IMG/VR virus record: IMGVR_UViG_3300028734_000012
Coordinates: 32,001 to 96,000 of that record
From: a virus
Strand: one strand, 5' to 3'
DNA length: 64,000 nucleotides
The notes under the pieces are model-generated. The model was not told the origin of the DNA, searched no databases, and saw nothing but the letters and a program-made list of their open reading frames with translations. Every line of letters starts with the position of its first letter. The stretch's first letter is position 1. This document shows positions 10,638 to 57,376 of this stretch, piece after piece. A program made the translations under genes and the position numbers.

Positions 10638-11543
10638 TCACCGCGCTTTGCTGTTGTTGCGTTCGCTTCTCATACATAATGCTTTACCAGTTGCGTATTT
10701 TTTGAAAAGTTCAATAAGTTCATTCGCAGTTTCATCAATGTCGTTAAAATAATCATCTTTGCAGAATTGGTCAACCAATAACATTATCTCTTTACACATG
10801 TTCATAAGATAAAAATATTGATTGACGTTATTGAATTTTGCAAGTCTAAATTCTAAACAACATTCATTTTTGAAAGTATCGTTTCTAATGTTTAACCAAT
10901 ACCCATGCGTAAATGAAATACTTGTAAATTCAGCATAATTTGTAAAGTATCTACCGAACACCCGTTCTGTTAGATATCTGTTTTCTTTCATATAATATGA
11001 AAGTGGTGCAAATAATTTTTCCGAGTTAGCTTTTAAAATTCTTGCGAACCGATTATCCCATGTGGTGCGGCTAATGTTGATATGATGACCACAGTTACTA
11101 GCGGTTAAGTCAACTATTTCGGATATTCCTTGAATACGATTTTTGTATCCGTGTAGTGAAGTCCGTCGCTCTTCTTTATATTCACAATCGACGGTGCAAT
11201 CATGAGTAGGTAATAAATGATATTGGCTTGCCATATATGCATTTATTTCCTCTTGTGTTTCAAGGTGAACGCCATTTACATTTGTACCGTTGTATTTATA
11301 AGCGCATTCCCATTCTACAGCAATTTGCATTTTTGACTTTGTTTCAAGTCCTATGAGATTATCAACCTCATCATTATAGGATGATGAGCCGTTGCGCGTG
11401 TCATTATTTGCGCATTCGTTACAAGTGTAACGAGTTTCGCCGCAACCCTTTGTAGGAATTGCAATGTAGTCAATTCCCTTTGTTCCCGTGATTTGTTTAC
11501 CGCATTTACGGCAAAACGTACCGATTCTAATTTTTGCGTTCAT
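10638..11543 (-). CDS. putative amidoligase (COOH-NH2 ligase type 2) with N-terminal Zn ribbon
   Basis: AVEWE, HDCTV..E, CGHHINIS and LEFR motifs in amidoligase order. Confidence 0.65.
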   Translation of the reverse strand: MNAKIRIGTFCRKCGKQITGTKGIDYIAIPTKGCGETRYTCNECANNDTRNGSSSYNDEVDNLIGLETKSKMQIAVEWECAYKYNGTNVNGVHLETQEEINAYMASQYHLLPTHDCTVDCEYKEERRTSLHGYKNRIQGISEIVDLTASNCGHHINISRTTWDNRFARILKANSEKLFAPLSYYMKENRYLTERVFGRYFTNYAEFTSISFTHGYWLNIRNDTFKNECCLEFRLAKFNNVNQYFYLMNMCKEIMLLVDQFCKDDYFNDIDETANELIELFKKYATGKALCMRSERNNSKAR

Positions 11544-11617
11544 TTTAATTTTTCATTCCTTTATTTTTTAATTTTTGCCCATATGAGATTATATAAGCGG
11601 ATATTTTTTTTATTTGA

Positions 11618-11854
11618 TTATGCTACAGTCAATGTGTAAATACCATCATAAGTGACCTTGCAATTGACTACAGATTGAATTTGCTCAACTTGTGAACGCT
11701 TGAAACAATATGTTTCTTTTTTGTGTTTTAGTTCTGTAATACAATCTTTTACAATTTGCTCAAAATAGTTATAACCTTTATTCTCTGTTTGTTCGCTCTT
11801 ATCGGTATCTAATATGCTATCTACTAACTCTTCAATATTAACATCTTTATTCAT
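11618..11854 (-). CDS. hypothetical protein
   Basis: AAGGA SD on the minus strand. Confidence 0.65.
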   Translation of the reverse strand: MNKDVNIEELVDSILDTDKSEQTENKGYNYFEQIVKDCITELKHKKETYCFKRSQVEQIQSVVNCKVTYDGIYTLTVA

Positions 11855-13377
11855 CTTTAAACATCCTTTATTATCCGCTTATATAATCTCATATGGTAAC
11901 ATTAATTTGTCGTAACTACCTTGCACTTATGGCATGAAGTAGGACTATAACACTACAGTCACAGTTACACGCTATACACTCTCGTTACTCATTAATGCTT
12001 ATTCTATTATCAAAGTACAATGGCGCTTATTAGACCATGTGAATGTGAATCACTTCCCTTGCTTATTCGTTTTTTGGAATATCTTAATAATAAACTGTTT
12101 TCATTTGTTCGTCAATAGTTATTTCAAATATTTTTTTATTTATTCGTAATTTATTTTTTTATTTATTTCATTAATTAAGAATACAATTTAGATATAACAA
12201 TAGTTAATTAACAATGTCATTACAAGCCCGTAAAGGGTCATTGTAGGCATTATGTATCATACATGCCATTAGTTACACCCATGATAACAACGTGCCTTGC
12301 AAGCCCTATGTAAAGCCCTATTGTAAAGGACTTATGTTAAACAATTAACAACGTGTTATATGTTACATTACATCTCATATTATAATGTGATGAGTACTAG
12401 TTATTGATATTACATTACTAACAAACAATTAGTTAAACTAAATATCTTTTAGGTCAACCCGTATCATGCTATGCTACAATGCTATGATGACCACATGCAA
12501 GGCATGTTGTAACAATGTTGCTACGTGTGTGTGTAACAATGATTACAAGTCACTAGAATAATACAAACAGTGTTAAAACAGTTTAGGGTATAGATTATAC
12601 TCTAAAATAAAAATGCCTTAATGAGCCGTTTAAACGCTCGTAATCGCATGTTGTTATAATGGCACGTTGTAACACATGCCTTTCAAGCCGTACGATAGTA
12701 TCAATACAGCGTGTAATACTGTGATTATACAATGCGTATAATTCCCTCAACTGTATTACTGTAGTACTGTATTAAGTATATGATACAACACATTGAAGAG
12801 TGTCAATGTATATTTATGTAATGCATATACATTTGTATGATTATACATTATGATTGTATGTGTTTATGCATATTGCATATACAAACAATGTATTATTGTA
12901 CAATGTCACCACGGGGGACGGGTGCGAACCCAAAATGAATAAATATTCATGTATATTCAATGTATATTTATGCATGGGGGGCTTTAGCACTTTAGCGTGT
13001 TGAAGCGCGGAACAGGGCATAGTAGCTACTAAGCATACATACTATAAAACGATATAGTCCATATAAGACAGTATACAGACACATGAACGATATACCCTAT
13101 ATACATACTGGCTAACGATATCAACCATAAGCCATAGAATCAACCGATATACTATATATACATTCAATTTATTTCACTTTTATTCCCTATATACTGTATA
13201 TACCCTATTTTAAAAAATACTGGGACTGTTTTTCAAAACGATATACCATATAAATGTATTAATAAAGAATTGAATTAAATATATTAAAAGTTTATTTAAA
13301 AACTACTTGACAAATTAATTCGTTTGATATATAATATGAGCAAGTAGAAAAGAGAGAAAAAAAGGGGAAACAAAAAA

Positions 13378-44870: not shown

Positions 44871-44945
44871 ATCACTGTAATTTAACTGGTAAAATACGAA
44901 ACTGATAATTTCGATTTCTAAGTCCAAGTCTTAGCGGTGATACCA
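44871..44945 (+). tRNA. tRNA-Ile(GAT)
   Basis: ATCACTG/CGGTGAT acceptor; CGAAA-CTGATAA-TTTCG; CCA. Confidence 0.85.
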
Positions 44946-44948
44946 TTT

Positions 44949-44974
44949 GGGTTTGTCATATAATGGTTATTATG
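44949..44974 (+). pseudogene. 5' tRNA fragment (acceptor strand plus D arm)
   Basis: GGGTTTG TC ATATAATGGTTATTAT G, then the HNH cassette. Confidence 0.5.
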
Positions 44975-44987
44975 TGACGTGATTTAA

Positions 44988-45086
44988 ATAGGTTTTATAT
45001 TATAATTGCAATTATAATATAAGTAATTAATTTTATTACCACAATTAATAAAATTCCCTATAATATCTTTTATTGTGGAAAGGATA
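44988..45086 (+). promoter_or_regulatory. structured HNH leader with SD-sequestering kissing loop, copy A
   Basis: Homologous to 48039-48136 with compensatory changes. Confidence 0.7.
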
Positions 45087-45092
45087 ATAATT

Positions 45093-45794
45093 ATGGATAT
45101 TAGTAAAAAGCAAATTGAAGAAACTGCAATACATTCTACTTCTTTAAGTGATTTGTTAGGAAATTTAGGTTTTACTAAAAGTGGTGCTAATACAAAAAAT
45201 TTAAATAAGTTAATTAAAGAATATAGCATTGAAACTAAATTTAATACTATAGTACATCGTATAGTAAATAATGATGACATATTTATTCAAGATAGTACTG
45301 CAAATCAATCAACTTTAAGACGTCATTATTATGAATTAACTAAAGAAAATTATCATTGTTATATTTGTGGACAAGAATCAGCATGGTTTGGAAAAGAACT
45401 TTCTTTAACATTAGACCATATTAATGGAGATAATCATGACGATAGATTTGAAAATTTAAGATGGATTTGTCCAAATTGTGATAGGCAACTTGATACTTTT
45501 AGTGGAAAAAATATTAAAAATAGAAAGTCTAAATTGTTAGATTCAAAAACGTGCAAAAGTTGTGGAAAAGAATTTATTCCTAAAAATACAATTCAAGAAT
45601 ATTGTTGTATAGAATGTGTCCATATATCTCAAAGAAAAACAATTAGACCATCTAAAGATGAGTTGTCAATATTAATTCGTAATTATACTTTTGTAGATTT
45701 AGGAAAGATGTTTGATGTTTCAGATAACACTATTAGAAAATGGTGTAAAATATATGGTTTACCATATTTAAAATCTGAAATTTTAAATACATAA
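45093..45794 (+). CDS. HNH endonuclease with Zn finger and C-terminal HTH
   Basis: LDHINGD..D.R.ENLR.ICPNC; V..NTIRKW; ATG 45093 follows AAAGGA SD. Confidence 0.85.
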   Translation: MDISKKQIEETAIHSTSLSDLLGNLGFTKSGANTKNLNKLIKEYSIETKFNTIVHRIVNNDDIFIQDSTANQSTLRRHYYELTKENYHCYICGQESAWFGKELSLTLDHINGDNHDDRFENLRWICPNCDRQLDTFSGKNIKNRKSKLLDSKTCKSCGKEFIPKNTIQEYCCIECVHISQRKTIRPSKDELSILIRNYTFVDLGKMFDVSDNTIRKWCKIYGLPYLKSEILNT

Positions 45795-45801
45795 TTATTT
45801 T

Positions 45802-45876
45802 GGTTGTATAGTATAGCGATTATTACATCGGACTGTCACTCCGAAAATCAGAGTTTAACTCTCTGTATAACCGCCA
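45802..45876 (+). tRNA. tRNA-Asp(GTC)
   Basis: TCGGA-CTGTCAC-TCCGA; GCCA end. Confidence 0.85.
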
Positions 45877-45880
45877 AATA

Positions 45881-45917
45881 ACAGTAAATCCGAGTTCGAT
45901 TCTCGGCATTCCCGCCA
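45881..45917 (+). pseudogene. 3' tRNA fragment (T arm, acceptor, GCCA)
   Basis: CCGAG TTCGATT CTCGG CATTCCC GCCA. Confidence 0.7.
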
Positions 45918-45952
45918 AAACCGTAAGTGATGGTTATATAATCACTTAATAA

Positions 45953-46030
45953 TACAGGGTAGAGAAGTTTGGTCATCTCATTAGGCTCATAACCTAAAAA
46001 TCGCTAGTTCGAATCTAGCCCCTGCAACCA
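45953..46030 (+). tRNA. tRNA-Met(CAT), initiator-like
   Basis: TTAGG-CTCATAA-CCTAA; fMet-like ...CCCTGCAACCA end. Confidence 0.85.
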
Positions 46031-46062
46031 AGGAAACCTATATCCTTTAAAGTAGGTGATAT

Positions 46063-46138
46063 ATCTGTTGGACGGTAAGGTATCGTTGTCTATCTCATAA
46101 GTAGATACAATTCGCTTCGATTGCGAAAGCAGATACCA
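46063..46138 (+). tRNA. tRNA-Met/Ile2(CAT)
   Basis: ATCTGTT/AGCAGAT; TCTAT-CTCATAA-GTAGA; CCA. Confidence 0.8.
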
Positions 46139-46176
46139 GAATTTTATTTAGAATGGTGGTGTGTTATTAAACAATA

Positions 46177-46608
46177 ATGAAAAATGGTGAATACATATTA
46201 GTTGTTGCCCCAAAAAATTACGATGGTAAAAAATATAGAAATAAATATTGTTATGAACATATTTTAGTTTATTGGGAATATTATAAAATATTACCAAAGG
46301 ACAATGAAATTATACATCATATTGATGGTAATAAACATAATAATGACATATCTAATTTAAAATTAATGTCAAAATTAGAACATGATATATTACATAAAAA
46401 TAAAAGAGGAATTAAATTTGTAATGCTAAAATGTACTGGATGTGGTAAAATTTTCGAAAAAGAAAAGAGAAAAACATTTTTAATTAGTGGTGGAAAATTT
46501 ACTTGTTGTTGTCGTAAATGTATAGGTATAACCACTGGATTAAATCAAGAAGAAAAAAATAAAAGGATATCTCAAAATTTAATATATGAATTTACTAAAT
46601 ATAAATAA
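46177..46608 (+). CDS. HNH endonuclease
   Basis: YEH.LV...IHHIDGNKHNN.ISNL; Zn finger. Confidence 0.85.
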   Translation: MKNGEYILVVAPKNYDGKKYRNKYCYEHILVYWEYYKILPKDNEIIHHIDGNKHNNDISNLKLMSKLEHDILHKNKRGIKFVMLKCTGCGKIFEKEKRKTFLISGGKFTCCCRKCIGITTGLNQEEKNKRISQNLIYEFTKYK

Positions 46609-46619
46609 ATCAATTATAT

Positions 46620-46691
46620 TCTGGTGTAACACAACGGTAGTGTAATTCCCTGTTAAGGAAAAGGCTGTTGGTTCAAGTCCAACCACCAGAG
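46620..46691 (+). tRNA. tRNA-Asn(GTT), no encoded CCA
   Basis: TCTGGTG/CACCAGA; CTGTTAA loop; TTCAAGT. Confidence 0.9.
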
Positions 46692-46692
46692 C

Positions 46693-46765
46693 GTTCCACA
46701 ATTTACAGTAACCTTTACGTGGTGTGGAATATCAACTATCTAAATTGATAGGCTAATAACTGTAA
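46693..46765 (+). ncRNA. HDV-like (theta-type, tRNA-associated) self-cleaving ribozyme
   Basis: P1 GTTCCAC/GTGGAAT (G1-U wobble), P2 TTACAGT/ACTGTAA, P3 ACC/GGT, L3 TTTACGT, P4 CTATC/GATAG, J4/2 GCTAA. Confidence 0.8.
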
Positions 46766-46804
46766 TTATTAATAATAGGTATATAATCATAATAGAGAAA
46801 ACAT

Positions 46805-46878
46805 AGCACCATCGAATAAAAGTAATTCGCAAGGTTCTCAACCTTGTAATCTGGTGGCAGAATCCAGTGGTGTTACCA
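46805..46878 (+). tRNA. tRNA-Glu(CTC), atypical T loop
   Basis: CAAGG-TTCTCAA-CCTTG; T loop GGCAGAA; CCA. Confidence 0.7.
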
Positions 46879-46882
46879 ACAT

Positions 46883-46958
46883 GGCACATTAGGCAAGTGG
46901 ACTAAGCCGTCACCCTTTCACGGTGAAGACACCGTTTCAATTACGGTATGTGTCTCCA
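46883..46958 (+). tRNA. tRNA-Glu(TTC)
   Basis: TCACC-CTTTCAC-GGTGA; CCA. Confidence 0.9.
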
Positions 46959-47010
46959 TAGTTCTCTTTTAGTGCTTTTCTATCTTTGCAAATAGTAAAA
47001 GCGCATTTAT

Positions 47011-47093
47011 GTCGAAGTGATGGAATGCATACATGCTAGTTTTAGAAGCTAGTGCCGAAAGGATTAGGAGTTCAAATCTCCTCTTCGACACCA
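47011..47093 (+). tRNA. tRNA-Leu(TAG)
   Basis: CTAGT-TTTAGAA-GCTAG; variable arm; CCA. Confidence 0.9.
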
Positions 47094-47122
47094 TTGACAA
47101 TCTGGAAAGACAGATAAAATAT

Positions 47123-47197
47123 GGAAGATTAGCTTATGTGGTAAAGCAGTAGTCCGAAGAACTACGGAATCCTATTCGAACGAGGAATGTTCCACCA
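47123..47197 (+). tRNA. tRNA-Phe(GAA)
   Basis: GTAGT-CCGAAGA-ACTAC; one acceptor mismatch; CCA. Confidence 0.75.
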
Positions 47198-47321
47198 GTT
47201 GAACAACGCAGGATACATATACGTTATAGGAGTAGGCACTAGTGCCCGCACCAAATTCTAAAAAATTAAGTAAATAGAGTGATATCCCTATCTGAAAGAT
47301 TTTTAAGTGTATCCAATATAT

Positions 47322-47396
47322 GGGGTCTGTAGTGTAATGGTAGCACGGAAAATTGTGATTTTTTAAGTAACAGTTCAATTCTGTTCATTCCCACCA
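47322..47396 (+). tRNA. tRNA-His(GTG)
   Basis: G-1; GAAAA-TTGTGAT-TTTTT; CCA; two acceptor mismatches. Confidence 0.8.
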
Positions 47397-47427
47397 AGCA
47401 ATAAGCACGGCTTTGTAGATGCTTTTA

Positions 47428-47486
47428 AAGACACACACAGCGATACAATAATAATAAAATATTTGCTTTTTATTAACTGTGTCTTG
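47428..47486 (+). ncRNA. ACAGC-stem RNA copy 3
   Basis: AAGACACA-CACAGCGA...TGTGTCTTG. Confidence 0.55.
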
Positions 47487-47565
47487 TTATCTAATTGGGT
47501 TCGTAACCTCAATTTCTTTGCGGCGAAGAGTTTAAATATGAGCCGAAAATAAGTTACGATTATAC

Positions 47566-47655
47566 GGAGAATAAACCAGACAGGCGAACTGGAACTGCCT
47601 TGAAAACAGATTGATGTTTAACAGCATTGGGTTTCGAGTACTCTGTTCTCCGCCA
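47566..47655 (+). tRNA. tRNA-Ser(TGA)
   Basis: GGAGAAT/GTTCTCC; CTTGAAA loop; long variable arm; GCCA. Confidence 0.85.
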
Positions 47656-47764
47656 AATTAGTGTGAAAATGGAACAACCACGCTATCTTACCTATAGAGA
47701 GTTTAAATAAATATAGGTGTTGACCTAATTAGGGTAGTAAAACTAATTTGTTGTTCCAAAATAT

Positions 47765-47840
47765 GTACTATTAGTGTAAATGGCAAGCACTTCTGCCTTC
47801 CAAGCAGAGAATTTCGGTTCAAGTCCGAAATGGTACACCA
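47765..47840 (+). tRNA. tRNA-Gly(TCC)
   Basis: TCTGC-CTTCCAA-GCAGA; CCA. Confidence 0.9.
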
Positions 47841-47891
47841 AACCTACTTTTCTGTTGCTTGGCTGTAGATAATGTGGAACAGAATTTTTAT

Positions 47892-47963
47892 CGAGGATGA
47901 GTTGTAATGGTATGCATGTGTACCTTGGACGTATGCGGAGAGGTTCGATTCCTACATCTTCGA
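47892..47963 (+). tRNA. tRNA-Pro(TGG), no encoded CCA
   Basis: CGAGGAT/ATCTTCG-A; CTTGGAC loop; imperfect D and T stems. Confidence 0.7.
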
Positions 47964-48035
47964 GTTAGACAAGATAATATACCTCTATGTGGTGTCAAAC
48001 ATCAACTGTTATTTATAACAGGCTAAATTATTATC
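47964..48035 (+). ncRNA. HDV-like (theta-type, tRNA-associated) self-cleaving ribozyme
   Basis: P1 GTTAGAC/GTCAAAC, P2 GATAATA/TATTATC, P3 ACC/GGT, L3 TCTATGT, P4 CTGTTA/TAACAG, J4/2 GCTAA; starts at the base after the tRNA discriminator. Confidence 0.8.
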
Positions 48036-48038
48036 AAA

Positions 48039-48136
48039 ATAGGTTTTTATATAGTGTTGCAACATTATATAAAGTAATTAAACTAATTGCTACTATCAAT
48101 TAGTTTCCCTATTAAATCTTTTATAGTAGAAAGGAT
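48039..48136 (+). promoter_or_regulatory. structured HNH leader with SD-sequestering kissing loop, copy B
   Basis: Homologous to 44988-45086. Confidence 0.7.
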
Positions 48137-48140
48137 AGAA

Positions 48141-48965
48141 ATGTTAAGTCAAGAAGAATTTGAAAAAAGAATATCTATTACATTTAATGATACGATTGAG
48201 ATTTTATCTGATTATAAGGGTAAGAGAAAAGACATAGAACTTAAATGTAAGAAATGCGGTTATCAATGGAATGTAGTTGCACAAAATGCAATGTATGGAA
48301 AACAAAGAAACTGTCCAGAATGTGAAATTGATAAAAAGAAAACAGGAGATTCTATAGTATGCGCTAATTGTGGCAAGAAAATATATAGAGTAAAGTCAAA
48401 GATGAGTAAATCAAAAAGTGGCTTGTACTTCTGTAATAGGAATTGTTCAAGTACATATTTTAATCATTCTAGTAATATAGTATCTATAAATAATTATAGA
48501 GATAAAGCTATAGATTATTATGGTGCAAAGTGTGAACTATGTGGAGACAATGAAGATATAAGATTATTAGATGTACATCATATTGATGAAAACAGATGTA
48601 ATAATGAAATTAATAATCTAATTGTTTTATGTGTTAAATGCCATGCTAAAATTACAAGAGGTATAGATAAACTTATTGATAGAACTCTGATAATAAATGA
48701 AGATAATATTGATAAAAATAACTCTGTGCATTGTAAGCCAGAAACAGTACATAAAAAATATTGTAAAATAAATTGTTATGATAAAACAGATAATCTAATA
48801 AAATCATTTAATAAAATGTCTGATGCATTAGATTGGTTAAAACAATTTTACCAAAATCCATCATCTACTCATATAATAGAATGTATCTTACATAAGAGAA
48901 AAAGTGCATATAATTATATTTGGGTTGGAGTGACTATAAATAAAAAGATACTTACAGCTATATAA
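48141..48965 (+). CDS. HNH endonuclease with Zn ribbons and NUMOD1-like C-terminus
   Basis: LDVHHID.NR.NN.INNL.VLC..CH; SAYNYIW; ATG 48141 follows AAAGGA SD. Confidence 0.85.
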   Translation: MLSQEEFEKRISITFNDTIEILSDYKGKRKDIELKCKKCGYQWNVVAQNAMYGKQRNCPECEIDKKKTGDSIVCANCGKKIYRVKSKMSKSKSGLYFCNRNCSSTYFNHSSNIVSINNYRDKAIDYYGAKCELCGDNEDIRLLDVHHIDENRCNNEINNLIVLCVKCHAKITRGIDKLIDRTLIINEDNIDKNNSVHCKPETVHKKYCKINCYDKTDNLIKSFNKMSDALDWLKQFYQNPSSTHIIECILHKRKSAYNYIWVGVTINKKILTAI

Positions 48966-49023
48966 ATTAATGATTTAGAATATGAAATTGTATAGGAATA
49001 TTAAGCGTGTAAGCAGTATCTTG
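48945..49023 (+). ncRNA. ACAGC-stem RNA copy 4
   Basis: AAGATACT-TACAGCTA...AGTATCTTG; overlaps the HNH stop codon. Confidence 0.55.
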
Positions 49024-49031
49024 TAAATGGA

Positions 49032-49101
49032 AAGGCACATACAGCTAATTTTAAAATCAAGAAGAATATTATAATTCTACTAATTTTTATTTAGTGCCTT
49101 G
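49032..49101 (+). ncRNA. ACAGC-stem RNA copy 5
   Basis: AAGGCACA-TACAGCTA...AGTGCCTTG. Confidence 0.55.
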
Positions 49102-49127
49102 TCAATAGTTTTAAGTAAAGAGGTCAT

Positions 49128-49886
49128 ATGGGAGAAAAAGAAAATAACAATTGTTCAGTGTATGTACATATTTTCCCTAATAGCAAACTATATTTTGGGA
49201 TTACTTCATTAGTACCACAAATACGATGGGGAAATAACGGAATAGGATATCAAGGTCAATGTGTATATAGTGCAATAAATAAATATGGTTGGGATAATAT
49301 TGAGCATATTATTTTATATGATAATTTGACGTTGGAACAGGCTAATAATTATGAAAAATTATTTATTAAATATTATGATACCAAAATTGATAATGGTAAT
49401 GGTTATAATGTTACAAATGGTGGTAATGGAACTTGTGGATACATATGGTCAGAAGAACAAAAATTAATTTTAAGTAAATCTCATATGGGATTAAATAATT
49501 TTATTAATAAGACTGAAAACGAAATGGAAGAAATAAATAAAAAGCGTAGTAAGTCAATAACAGAAACAATTAATTCGGAAGATTGGAAAGCAAAAAATAA
49601 AGGAATACATATAGGACATATAGTTTCTAAAGAGACAAAAGATAAAATAAGTAACTCTTTAATTGGATATAAACGTTCTGATTCTTTTAAAAAAAAATTA
49701 AGTGATATCCATAATATTCCTGTAATATGTGTATCAACAGGAGAAATATTTAAATCTACAAAAGAAGCAAGTAAGTTTTATAACTGTGATAGTTCAAATA
49801 TTACTGCATGTTGTAAAGGTAGGTTAAAAACAGCAGGTAAATTTAATGGAGTTAAGTTAGTATGGGAATATTGTACCAACATGTGA
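49128..49886 (+). CDS. GIY-YIG homing endonuclease with NUMOD3/NUMOD1-like domains
   Basis: VYVH...K.YFGIT..RW; GYN.T.GG; SKETKDKIS; ITACCKG..KTAG. Confidence 0.85.
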   Translation: MGEKENNNCSVYVHIFPNSKLYFGITSLVPQIRWGNNGIGYQGQCVYSAINKYGWDNIEHIILYDNLTLEQANNYEKLFIKYYDTKIDNGNGYNVTNGGNGTCGYIWSEEQKLILSKSHMGLNNFINKTENEMEEINKKRSKSITETINSEDWKAKNKGIHIGHIVSKETKDKISNSLIGYKRSDSFKKKLSDIHNIPVICVSTGEIFKSTKEASKFYNCDSSNITACCKGRLKTAGKFNGVKLVWEYCTNM

Positions 49887-49986
49887 ATCATAACACATAA
49901 AAATAAAATGTGGCTAGTCGATTACTGCTTGGCTGATTGGTAGTATAGGTTATGTAGCCTTAGTTTTACTTTGACTATATAAATAT

Positions 49987-50062
49987 GGGGATATAATTCA
50001 TTTGGTAGAATATCTGCCTTGCAAGCAGAACGTGAACGGTTCAAATCCGTTTATCTCCACCA
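49987..50062 (+). tRNA. tRNA-Ala(TGC)
   Basis: G3-U70; TCTGC-CTTGCAA-GCAGA; CCA. Confidence 0.95.
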
Positions 50063-50159
50063 ACATATCAAGTCGGAATGGAGACATTAAACCCATATCC
50101 ATTCCAGAATAAAACTGTGAAAAATTGATGGTTATACTTCCATACAAAAAGTAATTTAT

Positions 50160-50233
50160 GGTCAATTATTTTAACGGTAGAATCTCTGTTTTGTAATCAG
50201 AAGATGCGGGTTCGATTCCTGCATTGACCTCCA
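50160..50233 (+). tRNA. tRNA-Thr(TGT)
   Basis: GGTCAAT/ATTGACC; TTTGTAA loop; CCA. Confidence 0.85.
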
Positions 50234-50350
50234 CTTTCATTGACCTATATCTGCTTTGTTGCAAGAGTGGTGTAGAGAGAAAGCTTTAACTGTTTGTATG
50301 TATAACATGACTGCAACTATGTACTTTAGTACACAAAAACATTCGTTCAT

Positions 50351-50427
50351 ACGCTAATGGCTTAACTGGATAAAGCATCAGATTTCTAATCTGTGTATTG
50401 GGGGTTCAAGTCCCTCTTAGCGTACCA
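50351..50427 (+). tRNA. tRNA-Arg(TCT)
   Basis: ACGCTAA/TTAGCGT; TTTCTAA loop; CCA. Confidence 0.9.
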
Positions 50428-50432
50428 AATTA

Positions 50433-50488
50433 AAGATACTTACAGCTATTAAATAAAATCAAGCTTTATTGATAAAAATAGTATCTTG
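50433..50488 (+). ncRNA. ACAGC-stem RNA copy 6
   Basis: AAGATACT-TACAGCTA...AGTATCTTG. Confidence 0.6.
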
Positions 50489-50494
50489 TTATAT

Positions 50495-50568
50495 GGGGCA
50501 ATAGTCCAACGGTAGAACGTCAGCTTCCAAAACTGATTACGTGGGTTCAACTCCTACTTGCTTCGCCA
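50495..50568 (+). tRNA. tRNA-Trp(CCA)
   Basis: TTCCAAA loop; GCCA end. Confidence 0.85.
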
Positions 50569-50605: not shown

Positions 50606-50634
50606 AAACACCTATTTTTTATAGGTGTTTTTTT
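50606..50634 (+). terminator. terminator of the tRNA operon
   Basis: AAACACCTAT/ATAGGTGTTT stem plus T tract. Confidence 0.75.
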
Positions 50635-50711
50635 GTTATGTAAAAATACAAAATCTATATTTTATTTATATATAAAATTAATTTATATATAGAAGAAAGA
50701 GAGGAATTAAT

Positions 50712-52304
50712 ATGGCTGAAATCCATGTAGCGCCACAAATACAGAATGATGATGGCACTTTTACTGATGTAAAAATTCAAACAGATTCAAGTCAAGTATT
50801 TAATACTGATGGCACTACAGTACAATCACATGTTGATAATTCTAGTAAACATATTACCAAATGTTCGCACGTTAAGATTGGTACTGTTCATAATTTATCA
50901 GATGATAATATAGGGACTGTAACAGGCTCTAATGTCACAATTAATGGGACTGTAAATACTAGCATTAAAAGCTTAATTATTAATGGTAGCACTACTTTAA
51001 CTGGGACTGGAATAGCTTCTCCAAATAATCTTTATACTATAACAGGAGTAGTTGCTCCAAGTATTACTATCAACGATGTGGTACGCTCTACTACTATTAT
51101 TAATGCACTTTATAGTATGAGTGATGGAGTAAAAGATACCGTAAATATTACAACAGGAATAAGAACTAATTACACTGGATTAGTTAAATTTGTTGGCAAT
51201 GAAACTTGGTCAATATATTCTACTTCTGATAATTCTACTTCTGTATGTTTTTATGTTAGTTCTTTTACAAATAGATTAGCATCAAGTACAGACGTATGTA
51301 ATGAGTTTACATATAAAACAAATCTTTTAAGTAGTACTACAACAGATGAAGGGTACTGGTTAAGTGACGTACAAGCAAATGCAACCCTTGGATATTTCCG
51401 TGTAAATAAAAGCAGATTAATTGGATGGTCTGATTCACTTTCTGATGTAAACAAAATTGCATTATTTAAAACTTGGCTTTCTTCATATAATCTTATTGTA
51501 TTATATGAATTATTAACACCAACAACTTCTACAGAAACAATTCAAGAGTTTAGAACAGCGGATACAACTACAAATGTATCTATAGATAAAGGTTCATTTA
51601 CATTAGTTTATTTTAAAGATATGTTAGGTAGTAATACGATAAGTTTTCAAACTACTGCTGATTTTACCGTTGGAGATACATGGAAAATTAATGGTTCTCA
51701 ATTAATTGCAAAAATGATTAATGGTAATGCATTATATACCAATGTATTTAAATCTGGTGGATTTATTGTAGGTAAAATTGATGGCTCTAATTTATTAATA
51801 AGTATTACTGATGGCGGTAATTCAGATACTGTAGATGGAAAACATTCAAGCGATTTTGTACCAAAGGTTATTGGTTGTACTGGTAGTTGTGATGGTTATT
51901 TTCAGACAGGAGTTTATCAAGGTATATTTACAAATTATCCACCTTCATTACCAGATGGTCAAGGAAACTTAATTGTGCATTCATATAGTACAACTTCTAC
52001 AAGTGCTGGGTGGACACAACAAGAGTTTGTATCTGCTCAAACAAGTGTTAAAAACATAAGGAAAGCAGTTAATGGTGTTTGGGAATCATGGGGAACTCAA
52101 TATTCTTCTTTAAATATTGGTACTGCAAGTGTTTTAAATGCAGATACTGTAGATGGGATACATGCCGCTGATTTAGGTGGTATGTATGTAGGAATTGTCG
52201 CCCCAACTGCTGTAACAAAAGGTTGGATAGATACTGCTAATGGCGGTATATTGAAATATTTTAATGGTACTGCTTGGGTAGCGGCTAAAGGAGTTTGGGG
52301 ATGA
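50712..52304 (+). CDS. tail fibre-like virion protein
   Basis: Thr/Ser/Gly-rich; repeated DTVDG.H motifs; knob-like segment; C-terminal WIDT..GG.LKYFNG..W. Confidence 0.65.
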   Translation: MAEIHVAPQIQNDDGTFTDVKIQTDSSQVFNTDGTTVQSHVDNSSKHITKCSHVKIGTVHNLSDDNIGTVTGSNVTINGTVNTSIKSLIINGSTTLTGTGIASPNNLYTITGVVAPSITINDVVRSTTIINALYSMSDGVKDTVNITTGIRTNYTGLVKFVGNETWSIYSTSDNSTSVCFYVSSFTNRLASSTDVCNEFTYKTNLLSSTTTDEGYWLSDVQANATLGYFRVNKSRLIGWSDSLSDVNKIALFKTWLSSYNLIVLYELLTPTTSTETIQEFRTADTTTNVSIDKGSFTLVYFKDMLGSNTISFQTTADFTVGDTWKINGSQLIAKMINGNALYTNVFKSGGFIVGKIDGSNLLISITDGGNSDTVDGKHSSDFVPKVIGCTGSCDGYFQTGVYQGIFTNYPPSLPDGQGNLIVHSYSTTSTSAGWTQQEFVSAQTSVKNIRKAVNGVWESWGTQYSSLNIGTASVLNADTVDGIHAADLGGMYVGIVAPTAVTKGWIDTANGGILKYFNGTAWVAAKGVWG

Positions 52305-52310
52305 GTATAA

Positions 52311-52982
52311 ATGAGTGAAATGATTTCTAGTGAACTAATTGCTTTAAAAGCAAAAGTAAAAGCAGAAATGCAAAGAAGAGCATATACGGGAAGTCTTGTT
52401 GCTTATGCTGATACTTCTTGGGATTTTTCTACAACACCTGCTACGGGTGGAATAATATTAGCTGAACATGGTAAAAAAGTTATAGAACCATTACTAGCAG
52501 TTAAAACATATGGAGATTTAGTTCCTGTTGTTTCAGGCGCTATTATCCCTACATCTTTTGATAATACTGGATTAACAACTATAGTTAATAATTTAGCCGC
52601 AGAAGCTACTACAACGTCAGCATCTTCATGTTCTGCATCATGTACAGGATTATGTGTTGCTTGTACTGGTAGTTGCACTGGTGGTTGTAGCGGTAGTTGT
52701 AGCGGTAGTTGTAAAACTGGATGTAGCGGATGTGAGGGTTGCGGAGTATGTGATGTTACTTGTTTAGGATTTTGTAAAGCAACTTGTAATACCACATGTA
52801 CTCCATGTACTGGATGTTCTAGTATGTGTGCTGGTACTTGTGGGGCATGTACATCGTGTGATGGTTGCTCTGGATGTAGTGGTTCTAAATCTTCTGGTGC
52901 TAACTGTAGCGGATACTGTTCCAGTACATGTACAAGCAGTTGCGGAGCATGTACTGGATGTTCTGGTCAAAGAGCGAGTTAA
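52311..52982 (+). CDS. Cys-rich CXXX-repeat radical SAM target protein
   Basis: About 105-aa Cys-free N-terminus, then 30 Cys in CXX/CXXX spacing. Confidence 0.8.
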   Translation: MSEMISSELIALKAKVKAEMQRRAYTGSLVAYADTSWDFSTTPATGGIILAEHGKKVIEPLLAVKTYGDLVPVVSGAIIPTSFDNTGLTTIVNNLAAEATTTSASSCSASCTGLCVACTGSCTGGCSGSCSGSCKTGCSGCEGCGVCDVTCLGFCKATCNTTCTPCTGCSSMCAGTCGACTSCDGCSGCSGSKSSGANCSGYCSSTCTSSCGACTGCSGQRAS

Positions 52983-53005
52983 AATAAAAGGAGAAATATT
53001 TTATT

Positions 53006-53299
53006 ATGAAGGTAGAAATTAAAGGGGAACTTGTCGATTATATAGAATCATTGCAATATGAAACATATGCACGTAAAGATATTATAGCGTTTATGTTAGA
53101 AAAAAATATGAATATGAGTACTGATTCTGCAAAAGAATATCAAAAAGAATATAAAAGGTATTTTTCTGAATATGAAATTGCACTACAACAATTGAAAGAA
53201 TTATACATATATGCTAATCCTAGTATTGCTGATAAAGAAGTCAAATGGAGTTTAGATTTTGAGAGCAAAATGTTAACAATCGAGGTAGATAATGTATAA
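53006..53299 (+). CDS. small accessory protein of the CXXX-repeat modification locus
   Basis: Helical body, C-terminal W.LDF motif; lies between target and rSAM genes. Confidence 0.6.
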   Translation: MKVEIKGELVDYIESLQYETYARKDIIAFMLEKNMNMSTDSAKEYQKEYKRYFSEYEIALQQLKELYIYANPSIADKEVKWSLDFESKMLTIEVDNV

Positions 53300-54614
53300 A
53301 AAAATAGAACAATATGCTGATTATATCAATAGACTATTTCCACAACCATATGACGGTGATGTGCATCATAAAAAACTTGCACGTACAATAACATTTCAAG
53401 TTACTGATGATTGTAACCTAAGATGTACATATTGTTATGAAATTAACAAAGGTCATCATTTTATGAATTTTGATATAGCAAAACGTTTTATAGATGATAT
53501 ATTAAATACAGATATAGATACCAATGAATATATTAATATTGATAATTCTCCTGCTATTATAATGGAATTTATAGGTGGAGAACCATTCCTAGCAATAGAT
53601 TTGATTGATAAAATAACTGATTATTTTATTACACAAATGATTATAAAAAAACATCCGTGGGCTACAAGATTTATGATAACTATCTGTTCTAACGGTGTAT
53701 TATATTTTGATGAAAGAGTACAAACTTATATAAAGAAACACTTACATCATTTATCATTTTCCGTATCTGTAGATGGTAATAAGAGATTACATGATACTTG
53801 CAGAGTATTCCCTAATGGTATGGGTTCTTATGATATGGCTATAAAAGCAGTTAAGCACTTTACAGAAGTGCTTGGTGGTAAAATGGGAAGTAAGATGACA
53901 CTTGCTCCTGCTAATATAGGGTATACATTTGAAGCTGTTGAAAATCTTATTAAATTAGGATATGAACAAATATTTCTTAATACTGTATATGAAAAAGGAT
54001 GGACTAAAGAAAACGCAACTACACTATATGAACAACTTAAAATGGTAGCTGATTATTTATTAGAAAATGGGTTACAAAATAAGATATACCTATCTATTTT
54101 TGAGGAAGATTTTGCAAGACCAAAGGGCACTGATGATATTGATAATTGGTGTGGTGGTACTGGCAACATGATTGCTGTAGATTATAAGGGAGATATTTTT
54201 CCATGCTTACGTTATATGGAAAGTAGTCTAGGTGATGACCAAGAACCTATGATAATTGGTAATGTATTTGACGGTATGATGAAAACAGAAAAACAATGTG
54301 ATTGTGTTAATTGTTTAGGATGTATTGATAGAAGAACACAATCTACTGATGAATGTTTTAATTGTCCTATTGCGCAAGGTTGTGGATGGTGTTCTGCTCA
54401 TAATTATCAAGAGTTTGGTACGGCTAATAAAAGAACTACATATGCTTGCGATATGCATAAAGCAAGAGCATTGGCTAATGTATACTTTTGGAATAAAACA
54501 TATGCTAAAAACGGTATAGCTAAAAGATTTAAAAATTACGTACCAGACGAATGGGCTTTAGAAATTATAAATAAAGATGAACTTGAAATGCTTAAAAGTT
54601 TAGAAAAGAGATGA
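53292..54614 (+). CDS. radical SAM/SPASM peptide maturase, CXXX-repeat target type
   Basis: CNLRCTYC, FIGGEP, SVDG....HD; SPASM WCGG...PC...CFNCPI..GCGWC. Confidence 0.9.
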   Translation: MYKKIEQYADYINRLFPQPYDGDVHHKKLARTITFQVTDDCNLRCTYCYEINKGHHFMNFDIAKRFIDDILNTDIDTNEYINIDNSPAIIMEFIGGEPFLAIDLIDKITDYFITQMIIKKHPWATRFMITICSNGVLYFDERVQTYIKKHLHHLSFSVSVDGNKRLHDTCRVFPNGMGSYDMAIKAVKHFTEVLGGKMGSKMTLAPANIGYTFEAVENLIKLGYEQIFLNTVYEKGWTKENATTLYEQLKMVADYLLENGLQNKIYLSIFEEDFARPKGTDDIDNWCGGTGNMIAVDYKGDIFPCLRYMESSLGDDQEPMIIGNVFDGMMKTEKQCDCVNCLGCIDRRTQSTDECFNCPIAQGCGWCSAHNYQEFGTANKRTTYACDMHKARALANVYFWNKTYAKNGIAKRFKNYVPDEWALEIINKDELEMLKSLEKR

Positions 54615-54618
54615 TATA

Positions 54619-54945
54619 ATGTTTAAAATTAAATTAATTGATGGCACGATTTTTAACGCAACTTCTGTAGAAGAAAATTTTAGAACAGAAGTTACTGGTG
54701 ATGCTCATATTTCACTTACTATACAAAATGATAAAGCTGAACCTAGTGATAACCTTGAAGTATATAAAAATAAATTGATTACCGAAAATCTTAAATCAAT
54801 TTCAGTATACGATGAAACTGGTAAAAATCTAATTACTGTATATCAAGGATATGTATTTGTTAGATATTTAGCGGCTAGGATTCAAGCGAATGGAAGTATA
54901 CTATACGATTTTAATCTTACTAAAGAAGACTTAGTAACAGTATAA
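54619..54945 (+). CDS. hypothetical phage protein
   Basis: KIKL.DGT start; in operon. Confidence 0.65.
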   Translation: MFKIKLIDGTIFNATSVEENFRTEVTGDAHISLTIQNDKAEPSDNLEVYKNKLITENLKSISVYDETGKNLITVYQGYVFVRYLAARIQANGSILYDFNLTKEDLVTV

Positions 54946-55031
54946 TAATCTAAAAACAAATCATAATTGAGTAGGATAATTTCCCCCTTATATATGAATG
55001 GTTTAAACTTATTTTTAAGGGAGATGCTAAT

Positions 55032-55478
55032 ATGCAAGCACAGATTGATATGAATAGCGTATCAATTATTGTTGGGCTTATCTTATCTTTAAGTGCAATA
55101 ATTGGATTATTATTCAAGGTATTTAAGAAATTTGATAAGATTGATAAAATTGATATAATTTTAGTCAAAGTAGAGGAATTAGAGAAGAAATTTATTTTTG
55201 TAGATGTTATGAAGCAAGATTTTGAAGCAAATGCAAAAGAATCAGAAACTAAAATTACTTTACTCTCTGGATTAAAAGATGATGTAAAAGAGATATCTAC
55301 GCAATTAGAGGAAGTAAAAGAAGAAACACGATTTAATACTAGCATGAATAAAGTTGATACAGAAGTATTAGAAGCGTTAGCAGACCATGCCATTAAAACA
55401 CAGAATGCTAATGGTAAGGTACATAGAAGTTTAGAAATGCTAGAAAAACTAAAATTTAATAATCCAAAATTTTCATAA
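55032..55478 (+). CDS. TM plus coiled-coil protein (holin-like)
   Basis: Single N-terminal TM, coiled coil, NGKV motif. Confidence 0.5.
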   Translation: MQAQIDMNSVSIIVGLILSLSAIIGLLFKVFKKFDKIDKIDIILVKVEELEKKFIFVDVMKQDFEANAKESETKITLLSGLKDDVKEISTQLEEVKEETRFNTSMNKVDTEVLEALADHAIKTQNANGKVHRSLEMLEKLKFNNPKFS

Positions 55479-55559
55479 TTATCGTACTACTACATTTTAC
55501 TAATTGTTTACCCCTTTGATATTATTATTTAAAAATAATTAAAAAAGGAGTTTTATATT

Positions 55560-55709
55560 ATGGCTTTGACAACTAAACAAATTAAAGATTTAAATAATAT
55601 GAATATATCGGCTCAAAAAGCAAAGTTAGGAACGGAGATACAATCTATATTATCACAAATTGGTGATATAGAGATAATACTAGATATAATTAATGGTGAG
55701 ATTGTATGA
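55560..55709 (+). CDS. 49-aa phage protein (not in ORF track)
   Basis: AAGGAG SD; IGDI...LD.INGE.V C-terminus; ATGA overlap with next gene. Confidence 0.6.
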   Translation: MALTTKQIKDLNNMNISAQKAKLGTEIQSILSQIGDIEIILDIINGEIV

Positions 55710-57376
55710 GTATAATTAACAAATTACAATATTTAAATGAAACTAAAAATGAAATTAAAAATGCTATTAGAGATAAAGGTGTCGAGATATTAGACACTGA
55801 TATTTTTAGAAATTATCCTAATAAGATTAGTCAAATTAGTGGTGGTAGCGTTGAACCGCCATCCCCTTTAGAGGTATACAATACAACTAGACCTAAAGAT
55901 TGGCTGACGATGCCAATCCCTAATGATAATGAAGCTTATATGTTATTTTTAATACCACATACTGATATGGCTTTGTTTGCTATAAATGTAATATGTGACG
56001 GTATCTATAGCGTTTATTTTGGTGCTAATGAAAGCATAATCAATATATTGAGCGGGACTACAGCCGAAAAAACACTTGATTTTAATGATTATGATGATTT
56101 AACTTCTGATGGGTTTAAACAGGTAATGATAAGAATAACTGGTGAAAATATTACGGATATAAGTCTTGTATCTCATAGTTTGAAAAATGGTTATACAGAT
56201 TTTACGGTTGTAGATTTTATTGGGAAATTACCTGTTGTAGAAGATATTAAGATAACATCTAATAATTTAAGATACTTTAATCTAATTGGGAATAACAATA
56301 TAAGTCAGGTATCTGATATATCTAATCCTATGGTATTTAATAAATGTATATCATTAATCGCATTATTATCATTAAACACTAGCAAAGTTACTAGCATGAA
56401 TAGTATGTTTAGCAATTGCACCTCTTTAAAAAGTATACCATTATTAGATACAAGTAATGTTACTGATATGAATAATATGTTTAGCGGTTGCAATTGTTTA
56501 AAAAGTATACCATTATTAGATACAAGTAAAGTTACTAATATGAATAATATGTTTGATAGTTGTTTTTCTTTAACAAATATACCACTATTAGATACAAGTA
56601 ATGTTACTGATATGAGTAGCATGTTATCTTTTTGTCAGCTTTTAAAAAATATACCATTATTAGATACAAGAAATGTTACCGATATGAATAATATGTTTTC
56701 CACTTGTGTTTCTTTAATAAGTATACCATTATTAAACACTAGCAAAGTTACTAGCATGAATAGTATGTTTAGCAATTGCACCTCTTTAACAAATATACCA
56801 TTATTAGACACAAGTAATGTTACTGATATGAGTTATATGTTTATTGGGTGCAATTGCTTAATAAATATACCATTACTAAACACTAGCAAAGTTACTAATA
56901 TGAATAATATGTTTAGTAGTTGTATGTGTTTAAAAAGTATACCATTATTAGATACAATCAACGTTACTGATATGAGTAATATGTTTAATAGTTGTTTTTT
57001 TTTAAAAAGTATACCATTATTAGATACAAGTAATGTTATTGATATGAGTTATATATTTTATAATTGTACGTCTTTAATGGACATACCGTTGTTAAACATA
57101 AAAAGTCTTGTATCTAATGATGGTATGTTTAATTACTGTTCCTCAATATATAATATATTATTTGGTGGTCTAAATGTATCTAGTATTATAATTTCCATAC
57201 GTTCATGTCCTTTATCACATAAAGCAATAGTTAATTTAATTAATTCATTACCAATATCTGCGGAAAGTTCTACTTTAAATATTATTAACATTTTGAATAA
57301 TGAACCGCTAACAGATGCAGAAAAGTTAGTTGCTAATAATAAAAATTGGGATATAGCTACAGGAGAATTGGAATAA
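55706..57376 (+). CDS. BspA/DUF285-type repeat protein, probable virion-surface or receptor-binding protein
   Basis: About 10 tandem 24-aa IPLLDTSNVTDMNNMF..C..L repeats; N-terminal TK..IK.AI..KGV motif. Confidence 0.85.
   Translation: MSIINKLQYLNETKNEIKNAIRDKGVEILDTDIFRNYPNKISQISGGSVEPPSPLEVYNTTRPKDWLTMPIPNDNEAYMLFLIPHTDMALFAINVICDGIYSVYFGANESIINILSGTTAEKTLDFNDYDDLTSDGFKQVMIRITGENITDISLVSHSLKNGYTDFTVVDFIGKLPVVEDIKITSNNLRYFNLIGNNNISQVSDISNPMVFNKCISLIALLSLNTSKVTSMNSMFSNCTSLKSIPLLDTSNVTDMNNMFSGCNCLKSIPLLDTSKVTNMNNMFDSCFSLTNIPLLDTSNVTDMSSMLSFCQLLKNIPLLDTRNVTDMNNMFSTCVSLISIPLLNTSKVTSMNSMFSNCTSLTNIPLLDTSNVTDMSYMFIGCNCLINIPLLNTSKVTNMNNMFSSCMCLKSIPLLDTINVTDMSNMFNSCFFLKSIPLLDTSNVIDMSYIFYNCTSLMDIPLLNIKSLVSNDGMFNYCSSIYNILFGGLNVSSIIISIRSCPLSHKAIVNLINSLPISAESSTLNIINILNNEPLTDAEKLVANNKNWDIATGELE

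Follow-up and report, generated by a model that had tools for sequence, protein, structure and literature searches.

A radical-SAM-associated cysteine-ladder protein as a putative fibre component in phages of gut-type anaerobes

A 176-kb phage of gut-type anaerobes encodes, directly behind a fibre-type gene, a protein with 30 evenly spaced cysteines together with a dedicated radical-SAM enzyme and a helper, and the same gene set follows tail-fibre genes in dozens of phage lineages. We therefore assume that the cassette probably makes an enzyme-stapled part of a fibre, although this is inferred from sequence and not from any experiment. We analyzed a window of 64,000 nucleotides (positions 32,001 to 96,000 of IMG/VR record IMGVR_UViG_3300028734_000012), in which five tightly packed genes on the plus strand span 50712-54945, with spacings of 6 nt, 23 nt, an 8-nt overlap and 4 nt. 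A literature search found no paper on this system. The locus contains the following features:

50606-50630 (+), terminator-like hairpin that closes the tRNA array
50633-50661 (+), promoter-like site ahead of the operon
50712-52304 (+), 530-aa fibre-type protein whose body has no known family
52176-52301 (+), C-terminal module of the 530-aa protein (residues 489-530)
52311-52982 (+), 223-aa Cys-rich protein
52311-52628 (+), its Cys-free N-terminal domain (residues 1-106), predicted to be folded
52629-52961 (+), its Cys array (residues 107-217)
53006-53299 (+), 97-aa helper protein, overlapping the enzyme gene by 8 nt
53292-54614 (+), 440-aa radical SAM/SPASM maturase, with CX3CX2C at nt 53412-53435 and the SPASM cysteines at nt 54150-54449
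54619-54945 (+), 108-aa protein of unknown family, the last gene of the packed block

The terminator-like and promoter-like sites are matches from a consensus scan only, and the same scan showed no terminator-like site on the plus strand between 50712 and 54945. The observation made in the first-pass annotation, four packed genes for a tail-fibre-like protein, a 30-Cys protein, an accessory protein and an rSAM/SPASM enzyme without a transporter, peptidase or immunity gene nearby, is confirmed, with the correction that the resemblance of the 530-aa protein to tail fibres rests only on its last 42 residues. Its interpretation as a virion component cross-linked by RiPP chemistry is partly supported: the family assignment is right and the link to tail genes holds in homologous loci, but in this genome the cassette is not inside the tail module, and both thioether chemistry, which follows only from the enzyme family, and presence in virions remain inferences.

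The enzyme is a full member of NCBIfam TIGR04115 (rSAM_Cxxx_rpt, CXXX-repeat target family), with 455.3 bits against a cut-off of 350 and residues 30-399 covering positions 1-359 of the 359-position model. It also matches phrog_1802 with 218 bits. The radical-SAM motif CNLRCTYC lies at residues 41-48, and the seven SPASM cysteines C287, C305, C355, C358, C364, C367 and C386 are invariant in our alignment and align to CteB. The best solved relative is CteB (PDB 5WGG, E 1e-21), with residues 20-394 aligned to CteB 86-443, so that the N-terminal part of CteB has no counterpart. That part is the peptide-recognition domain of CteB, whereas the enzyme in the window has only about 30 residues before its radical-SAM core. 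CteB (SCIFF) and PapB (ranthipeptide), which share the radical-SAM core and the two-cluster SPASM domain, are the best sequence matches among characterised enzymes and both make thioethers, but the scores are far below the respective family cut-offs, with 174.6 against 340 for the PapB model (NF047865) and 113.8 against 425 for the SCIFF model (TIGR03974). The enzyme thus qualifies neither as a PapB-type nor as a SCIFF/CteB-type maturase.

The 223-aa protein ends 310 nt upstream of the enzyme gene, with only the helper gene between. All of its 30 Cys lie between residues 107 and 217, with spacings of 4 (16 times), 3 (12 times) and 10 (once), and residues 1-106 hold no Cys. This layout is not due to chance, as 557 proteins in the 90%-clustered database share the same two-part organization. 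The repeat units have the composition C-[S/T]-G-[G/S/T], and the array opens with the conserved motif C..SCTGLC, which occurs in 98 of 121 family members. TIGR04117 aligns only to residues 75-139 and scores 16.6 bits against a cut-off of 50, and TIGR04114 gives no hit at E 0.01, while the homologue at the related locus L001 (L numbers denote related loci or lineages) reaches TIGR04114 with 21.3 bits against a cut-off of 20, and relatives at 34-50% identity carry precomputed hits to PF27846. The target appears to be of the TIGR04114/PF27846 type. The CXXX-repeat radical-SAM system to which these models belong was defined in silico and is not known to have been characterised. Compared with it, the protein in the window carries a 100-residue N-domain that these models do not cover, and the set also includes a helper without NCBIfam match, a fibre-type protein with a dedicated C-terminal module and a context of phage tail genes.

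To get information on the two halves of the protein, we predicted its structure using AlphaFold2 with 100 sequences. The block means of pLDDT are above 90 for residues 11-100, with helices at 6-22, 51-64 and 85-97, whereas pLDDT is below 50 for most of the array, which thus has no confident predicted structure. No solved fold matches the N-domain (best Foldseek E 2.1, best VIA Z 5.5). A profile of the domain finds 600 clusters at 50% identity, and among the 150 listed hits it almost always starts at residue 1.

A profile of the 97-aa helper finds it next to the enzyme in 82 of the first 85 loci surveyed and in 61 of 73 lineages, and in L003 it is fused to the N-terminus of the enzyme. Its AlphaFold2 model (pLDDT 95) consists of a strand, a long two-helix hairpin and a beta-hairpin, a predicted fold different from that of the recognition part of CteB, in whose place the helper stands. 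The RiPP recognition element (PqqD-like) is a winged helix of three strands and three helices. No PqqD-like entry appeared among the listed structural matches, no specific PDB match was found, and a profile search of PDB sequences returned nothing below E 0.07. The order Cys protein, helper, enzyme is kept across the 73 lineages, with the N-domain in 58 and a Cys run of 10 or more in 67, and these counts, like that of the helper, are lower bounds because many contigs are short. Homologues of the 108-aa protein lie directly after the enzyme gene in L005, L006, L111, L170 and L191, but the protein itself has no family hit.

The 530-aa protein has no Pfam, NCBIfam, PHROG or phage-database match and only one relative, at 56% identity, and ESM Atlas gives only weak fibre-flavoured leads with scores of 0.81-0.85. 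Nevertheless, the link to fibres is strong. The last 42 residues form a conserved module with the consensus TAP..T..LWIDT.NGGI.KYYNGTAWV.V..VWG., which occurs once in the 176-kb genome. An HMM of the module finds it in the gene upstream of the cassette in 46 related loci (50 proteins), at the very C-terminus in 48 of the 50, and in more than 20 loci this gene ends 2-30 nt before the Cys-protein gene. A reverse search starting from the module alone recovers the cassette in 26 of 32 viral loci. The module-bearing neighbours include recognisable fibres, with PF12571 in L006, phrog_26419 in L016 and a collagen-like fibre with phrog_5073 (E 1.6e-85) in L172.

Absence of linkage to tail genes in homologous loci had been named beforehand as an outcome that would speak against a virion role, and our survey clearly does not show it. 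In many lineages the cassette follows tape-measure, baseplate and fibre genes or precedes the endolysin, and in most it lies between the baseplate or fibre genes and the lysis genes. Upstream genes in L083 and L016 include the tape measure, a baseplate wedge protein (phrog_6) and tail proteins, and an endolysin lies downstream in L055. Furthermore, relatives fuse the Cys array or the N-domain to adsorption-type domains. L055 encodes an 816-aa protein made of a Cys array plus two PF12810 glycine-rich domains, the relative P0220 has the N-domain followed by a host-adsorption/CBM domain (phrog_5499, E 2.5e-14) and a Cys array, and the relative P0136 has the N-domain, a Cys array and a 190-aa C-terminal region with few Cys. 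In the genome studied here, however, the cassette lies between a tRNA array and the packaging genes, about 45 kb from the main tail module, with tRNAs, homing endonucleases, an exonuclease and the terminase as neighbours, so that its description as part of a tail-fibre operon is only partly right for this phage.

Taken together, we consider it somewhat more likely than not that this is a late-gene cassette that makes an enzymatically cross-linked part of a tail fibre. In this view, the enzyme would work with the helper, standing where related enzymes carry a built-in N-terminal domain, and act on the (C-X2-3)n array to install many short intramolecular cross-links, most probably Cys-sulfur-to-carbon thioethers as made by CteB and PapB. 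The N-domain would not be removed, because no recognisable peptidase is encoded, and is proposed to dock the ladder onto the C-terminal WIDT..KYYNG module of the fibre-type protein encoded just upstream. The result would be a thin, reduction- and protease-resistant shaft or tip, useful for phages whose hosts are strict anaerobes, where disulfides would not hold. This is in line with the origin of the genome-derived loci, mainly Oscillospiraceae, Lachnospiraceae, Faecalibacterium, Blautia and Eubacterium. The gene content, family membership, four-gene synteny and domain fusions, together with the folds as predictions, are established by the analysis, whereas modification of this protein by the enzyme, the type of bond, the docking and the virion location are inferred without direct evidence. 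Some observations do not fit easily with this view. Extra Cys-only proteins without an N-domain occur in some lineages as separately translated genes, and therefore the N-domain cannot be the only recognition or docking element. Cys proteins are also not markedly more variable than their neighbours within close phage groups, unlike typical receptor-binding tips, and no cultured phage in the GenBank collection of 50,697 records carries the N-domain.

It is also possible, although unlikely, that the protein is fibre-associated but the chemistry is different, with the array acting as a metal-binding or disulfide-type structural element and the enzyme making another change, such as Cys oxidation as in anaerobic sulfatase maturases, epimerisation or a link between proteins. 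Asp and Glu, the acceptors in the Cys-X3-Asp/Glu motifs of PapB substrates, are each at most 5% at every repeat position, which leaves the bond type open. In line with such an alternative are the low PapB and SCIFF scores, a weak match of 61.4 bits to the anaerobic sulfatase maturase model, a BFVD label of one relative as 'TNFR-Cys domain-containing' and the lack of a confident structure for the array. On the other hand, the nearest characterised relatives both make thioethers, the full two-cluster SPASM motif is typical of peptide cross-linkers, and a dedicated enzyme kept in 73 lineages argues that the Cys residues themselves are the targets.

A RiPP-like product that is not part of the particle, for example a bacteriocin-like, signalling or host-modifying molecule released at lysis and carried as phage cargo, seems improbable. 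In its favour, the enzyme family belongs to RiPP maturases, in this genome the cassette lies outside the tail module beside mobile homing-endonuclease genes and tRNAs, and the terminator-like and promoter-like sites suggest its own transcription unit. However, no peptidase, exporter or immunity family was found among the operon's proteins in Pfam, NCBIfam, PHROGs or PADLOC, and no peptidase or transporter family among the genes from 50712 to 57376. The products, with 140-970 aa and an N-domain that is predicted to be folded and assumed to be kept, also differ from the short precursor with a cleavable leader of a classical sactipeptide or ranthipeptide cluster. The connection to the fibre module in both search directions, the fusions and the position between structural and lysis genes likewise speak against this reading.

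Equally improbable is a fibre assembly factor or chaperone that acts on the upstream fibre and is absent from the finished particle. In its favour, classical tail-fibre assembly genes sit in this same position, the Cys-protein gene appears translationally coupled to the fibre gene by a Shine-Dalgarno-like sequence inside the last codons of the latter, and no solved fold matches the N-domain. Nevertheless, arrays of 20-100 Cys with a dedicated maturase are hard to explain for a transient chaperone, and members with C-terminal or inserted adsorption-type domains look like fibre proteins in their own right.

With respect to other phage systems, the gene order resembles that of gp38-type adhesins of T2/S16-like phages, in which a small protein encoded after the fibre gene caps the fibre tip and has a glycine-rich repeat domain. 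In both cases an N-terminal domain is followed by a Gly/Ser-rich repetitive region, but no sequence or fold similarity was found, and gp38 needs no modifying enzyme, whereas here a dedicated rSAM enzyme and helper accompany the protein. In SPN3US-type giant Salmonella and Erwinia phages, whose hosts are facultative aerobes, three ORFs for CXXX-repeat mini-proteins lie beside two rSAM genes and next to virion structural and fibre-like genes, with an enzyme only about 24% identical.

Radical-SAM/SPASM maturases are known for making small antimicrobial or cofactor peptides, and a structural use on virus particles would be a new role for this chemistry. In the most far-reaching form of our reading, which we regard as slightly less likely than not, phages of strict anaerobes build a new kind of fibre shaft or tip, in which a dedicated enzyme turns a protein segment into a ladder of tens to about a hundred thioether rings, docked through a previously undescribed N-domain onto a dedicated module of a tail fibre. 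RiPP-type radical chemistry is not known to have been described as finishing a virion structural protein, so this would be a first case and an anaerobe's substitute for disulfide bonds. The cassette is common, as relatives of the enzyme occur on 446 IMG/VR viral contigs, and it is concentrated in phages and prophages of major human-gut Clostridia such as Faecalibacterium, Blautia, Oscillospiraceae and Lachnospiraceae. If the ladder is a fibre part, it makes the so far uncharacterised reaction of TIGR04115 directly testable with a defined trio of enzyme, helper and substrate, it offers a genetically encoded way to make very stable, repetitive cross-linked protein rods, and it bears on how gut phages recognise hosts and survive proteases and reducing conditions.

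To characterize the cassette in more detail, we first analyzed the organization of the locus within the genome, which is a single contig of 176,332 bp with 30.6% G+C and is covered by the window from 32001 to 96000. Five tightly packed ORFs on the + strand fill 50712-54945, with gaps of 6, 23, -8 and 4 nt, and the surrounding features are as follows (window coordinates):
44871-50568, array of 13 tRNA genes found with ARAGORN, interleaved with HNH and GIY-YIG homing-endonuclease genes, directly upstream of the cassette
50606-50630, terminator-like hairpin
50633-50661, promoter-like site
from 50712, + strand, 530-aa fibre-type protein
52311-52982, + strand, 223-aa Cys-rich protein
53006-53299, + strand, 97-aa helper protein
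53292-54614, + strand, 440-aa radical SAM/SPASM enzyme
54619-54945, + strand, 108-aa protein without a family
55706-57376, 556-aa DUF285/PARCEL-repeat protein (PF03382, 193 bits), between the cassette and an exonuclease gene, with PHROG matches only to families of unknown function

No terminator-like site was detected on the + strand inside the block. Homologues of the 108-aa protein lie directly after the enzyme gene in at least five other loci of our survey (L005, L006, L111, L170 and L191), and it may be a fifth member of the cassette.

The 223-aa protein contains 30 Cys, all between residues 107 and 217, with spacings of 4 (16 times) and 3 (12 times). The units read C-[S/T]-G-[G/S/T] and acidic residues are rare. 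The 440-aa protein is a full member of NCBIfam TIGR04115, the radical SAM peptide maturase, CXXX-repeat target family, with a score of 455.3 bits against a cut-off of 350, whereas the next families fall far below their cut-offs (PapB 174.6 against 340, SCIFF maturase 113.8 against 425). It carries the CX3CX2C motif at residues 41-48 and the SPASM cysteines 287, 305, 355, 358, 364, 367 and 386, which are invariant among five relatives and align to CteB. Therefore, the observation of the first-pass annotation, a radical SAM/SPASM enzyme encoded close to a protein with 30 Cys, is confirmed. PADLOC returned only generic radical-SAM core matches to viperin models, so this is not a known defence system. 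The enzyme-target pair itself is already curated as a family defined in silico (TIGR04115, TIGR04114/04117, PF27846), to which the cassette described here adds a conserved helper and a fibre-type gene with a dedicated C-terminal module. Literature searches revealed no paper on this pair, in phages or otherwise.

A search of the 90%-clustered protein database with the 223-aa protein yielded 557 relatives at E 0.001 or better, and almost all of the 120 listed share its layout, with about 105 residues containing no Cys or one Cys followed by 15-38 Cys spaced mostly by 4. Many of them carry Pfam PF27846, named tSAM_targ_Cxxx_rpt in Pfam 38.1, and their Atlas clusters are 71-100% viral. The opening motif C..[A/S]C[T/S/V]GLC of the Cys array occurs in 98 of 121 members. 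AlphaFold2 with 100 sequences folds residues 11-100 at pLDDT above 90 and leaves most of the Cys array below 50. Fold searches with the model of this N-domain found no solved structure that resembles it (best Foldseek E 2.1, best VIA Z 5.5), and weak TssK matches are within noise. An alignment of the N-domain was too variable to give search patterns, but a profile of the N-domain alone finds 600 clusters at 50% identity, 382 of them at E 1e-10 or better, and among the 150 listed hits the domain almost always starts at residue 1.

The 97-aa helper has no family in Pfam, NCBIfam, PHROGs or PADLOC, but it is nevertheless conserved, as a profile finds it next to the enzyme in 82 of the first 85 loci surveyed. 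In locus L003 it is fused to the N-terminus of the enzyme, resulting in a 549-aa protein. The enzyme of the window aligns to CteB residues 86-443 and has only about 30 residues before its radical-SAM core, and therefore lacks a counterpart of the N-terminal part of CteB, which is the peptide-recognition domain of that enzyme. The helper thus stands in the place of such a domain, but its predicted fold differs: the model (pLDDT 95) shows one strand, a long helical hairpin and a beta-hairpin, and fold searches gave no specific PDB match but only generic helical hairpins with Z of 7.9 or less. We assume that the helper is the substrate-handling partner of the enzyme, although this is an inference.

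To get an overview of related loci we searched viral and bacterial sequences. A first viral scan with the single enzyme sequence found nothing, whereas an alignment of five enzymes found relatives on 446 IMG/VR contigs and on 114 contigs of bacterial genomes. In total, 159 loci were fetched, which form 82 lineages when clustered at 85% enzyme identity, and 73 of these are at least 35% identical to the enzyme of the window. In these 73 lineages the helper is present in 61, the N-domain in 58 and a Cys run of 10 or more in 67, which are lower bounds because many contigs are short. The usual gene order is Cys protein, optional extra Cys-only proteins, helper and enzyme, and Cys runs reach 103 in locus L020. 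It was also considered whether stop-codon read-through joins the fibre to the Cys protein, or the Cys protein to the extra Cys-only ORFs, but this possibility is rejected. The junction with the fibre and two of the Cys-ORF junctions have a second in-frame stop, the other junctions examined change frame or are long gaps, and the Cys-only ORFs examined have their own ribosome-binding sites, so that they are separate genes. In locus L004 (7608-13981) the cassette is duplicated, with two N-domain Cys proteins (207 and 210 aa, 75% identical in the N-domain), each followed by a paralogous protein of about 440 aa, plus two helper genes and one enzyme, flanked by two fibre proteins that carry the C-terminal module described below. 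Hypervariability of the Cys proteins within close phage groups was not seen in the group of locus L022 and is only mild in the group of locus L055.

The genome-derived loci come mainly from Oscillospiraceae, Lachnospiraceae, Faecalibacterium, Blautia and Eubacterium, all strict anaerobes, and they include isolates. Cultured strains with prophages that carry the cassette are Faecalibacterium prausnitzii strain 2 (NZ_CP186691, locus L160), Anaerolentibacter hominis CSJ-1 (L094) and Eubacterium pyruvativorans i6 (L098). In the GenBank phage collection of 50,697 records the N-domain occurs only in one unannotated faecal contig, so no cultured phage in this collection carries it, and the 530-aa protein has no DNA or protein match there. 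A different arrangement was found in Margulisiibacteriota/Termititenax contigs (L144-L158, L162-L163), which hold many copies of a giant Cys-repeat protein (392-742 aa, runs of 30-122 Cys) directly upstream of a 399-aa radical SAM enzyme that is only about 30% identical to that of the window. Neither a helper nor an N-domain is present. This looks like a separate branch, which was not recognizably phage-borne in the markers used. In addition, Salmonella phage SPN3US (NC_027402, locus L164) has three unannotated CXXX-repeat ORFs of 130, 134 and 68 aa at 11192-12221 on the - strand beside two radical SAM genes, and the RefSeq gene gp100 (11410-11745) is called in another frame over one of them. 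A gene annotated as virion structural protein and a 1481-aa protein that looks fibre-like to us lie next door.

In related phages the cassette sits at the end of the tail module. In locus L083 it follows a tape measure (phrog_1272), a tail protein (phrog_400), a baseplate wedge protein (phrog_6) and a tail protein (phrog_521), in locus L016 it follows a tail protein (phrog_1887) and a tail fibre (phrog_26419), in L006 the upstream gene has the PF12571 fibre N-terminus and in L055 an endolysin follows the cassette. Marker searches place such tail genes in 42 of the 73 lineages. A more specific link is provided by the last 42 residues of the 530-aa protein, which form a conserved C-terminal module with the consensus TAP..T..LWIDT.NGGI.KYYNGTAWV.V..VWG. 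An HMM of the module finds it in 50 proteins of 46 loci, at the very C-terminus in 48 of them, and in more than 20 loci that gene ends 2-30 nt before the Cys-protein gene. Conversely, a search of IMG/VR from the module alone returned 32 loci, 26 of which have the cassette directly downstream, and one such module-bearing protein is an 843-aa collagen-like tail fibre (phrog_5073, E 1.6e-85).

Fused forms point in a similar direction. The L055 group (24 contigs) has an 816-aa protein with a 200-residue Cys array followed by two PF12810 glycine-rich domains, and next to it a 1081-aa protein with three such domains. Longer, fused forms of the N-domain were not found by a single-sequence search, but the profile search recovered a few. 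One of these proteins, P0220, has the N-domain, then a domain matching a host range and adsorption protein (phrog_5499, E 2.5e-14), other tail families and weakly CBM_4_9, and then a Cys array, whereas another, P0136, has the N-domain, a Cys array and a 190-aa C-terminal region with few Cys. In our reading these layouts look like attachment, shaft and head, which is how fibres are built.

The genome analyzed here differs in one respect. Its canonical tail module lies at genome positions 112687-130517 and holds a tape-measure-like 1850-aa protein and homologues of the L016 tail proteins, followed by a GH25-like lysin. A 231-aa homologue of the first 200 residues of the L016 tail fibre sits in the canonical fibre slot (128697-129392 of the genome, outside the window), but it lacks the C-terminal WIDT..KYYNG module. 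The module occurs only once in the 176-kb genome, on the 530-aa protein 45 kb away, as if one fibre had been divided between two loci. The gene of the 530-aa protein lies between the tRNA array with its homing endonucleases and the DUF285 repeat protein, an exonuclease, the large terminase and the portal. The interpretation of the first-pass annotation is only partly supported, and its placement of the cassette inside a tail-fibre operon overstates the case for this genome. The cassette travels with its own fibre-type gene.

Gene content, family membership, synteny, fusions and predicted folds follow directly from the sequence analysis, whereas modification of the Cys protein by the enzyme, the type of bond, the docking and a location in the virion are inferred. 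Thioether bonds are the most likely chemistry because CteB and PapB are the nearest characterized relatives, but the acceptors differ from those of PapB and the bond type cannot be assigned on present evidence. Another chemistry at the same location is possible but considered unlikely, and a released RiPP-like product or an assembly factor that is not part of the virion seem even less likely, both to the same degree. With moderate confidence, we assume that the enzyme and the helper cross-link the Cys array and that the N-domain stays on the protein and docks it to the C-terminal module of the fibre. In this view, the product would be a reduction-proof fibre shaft or tip.
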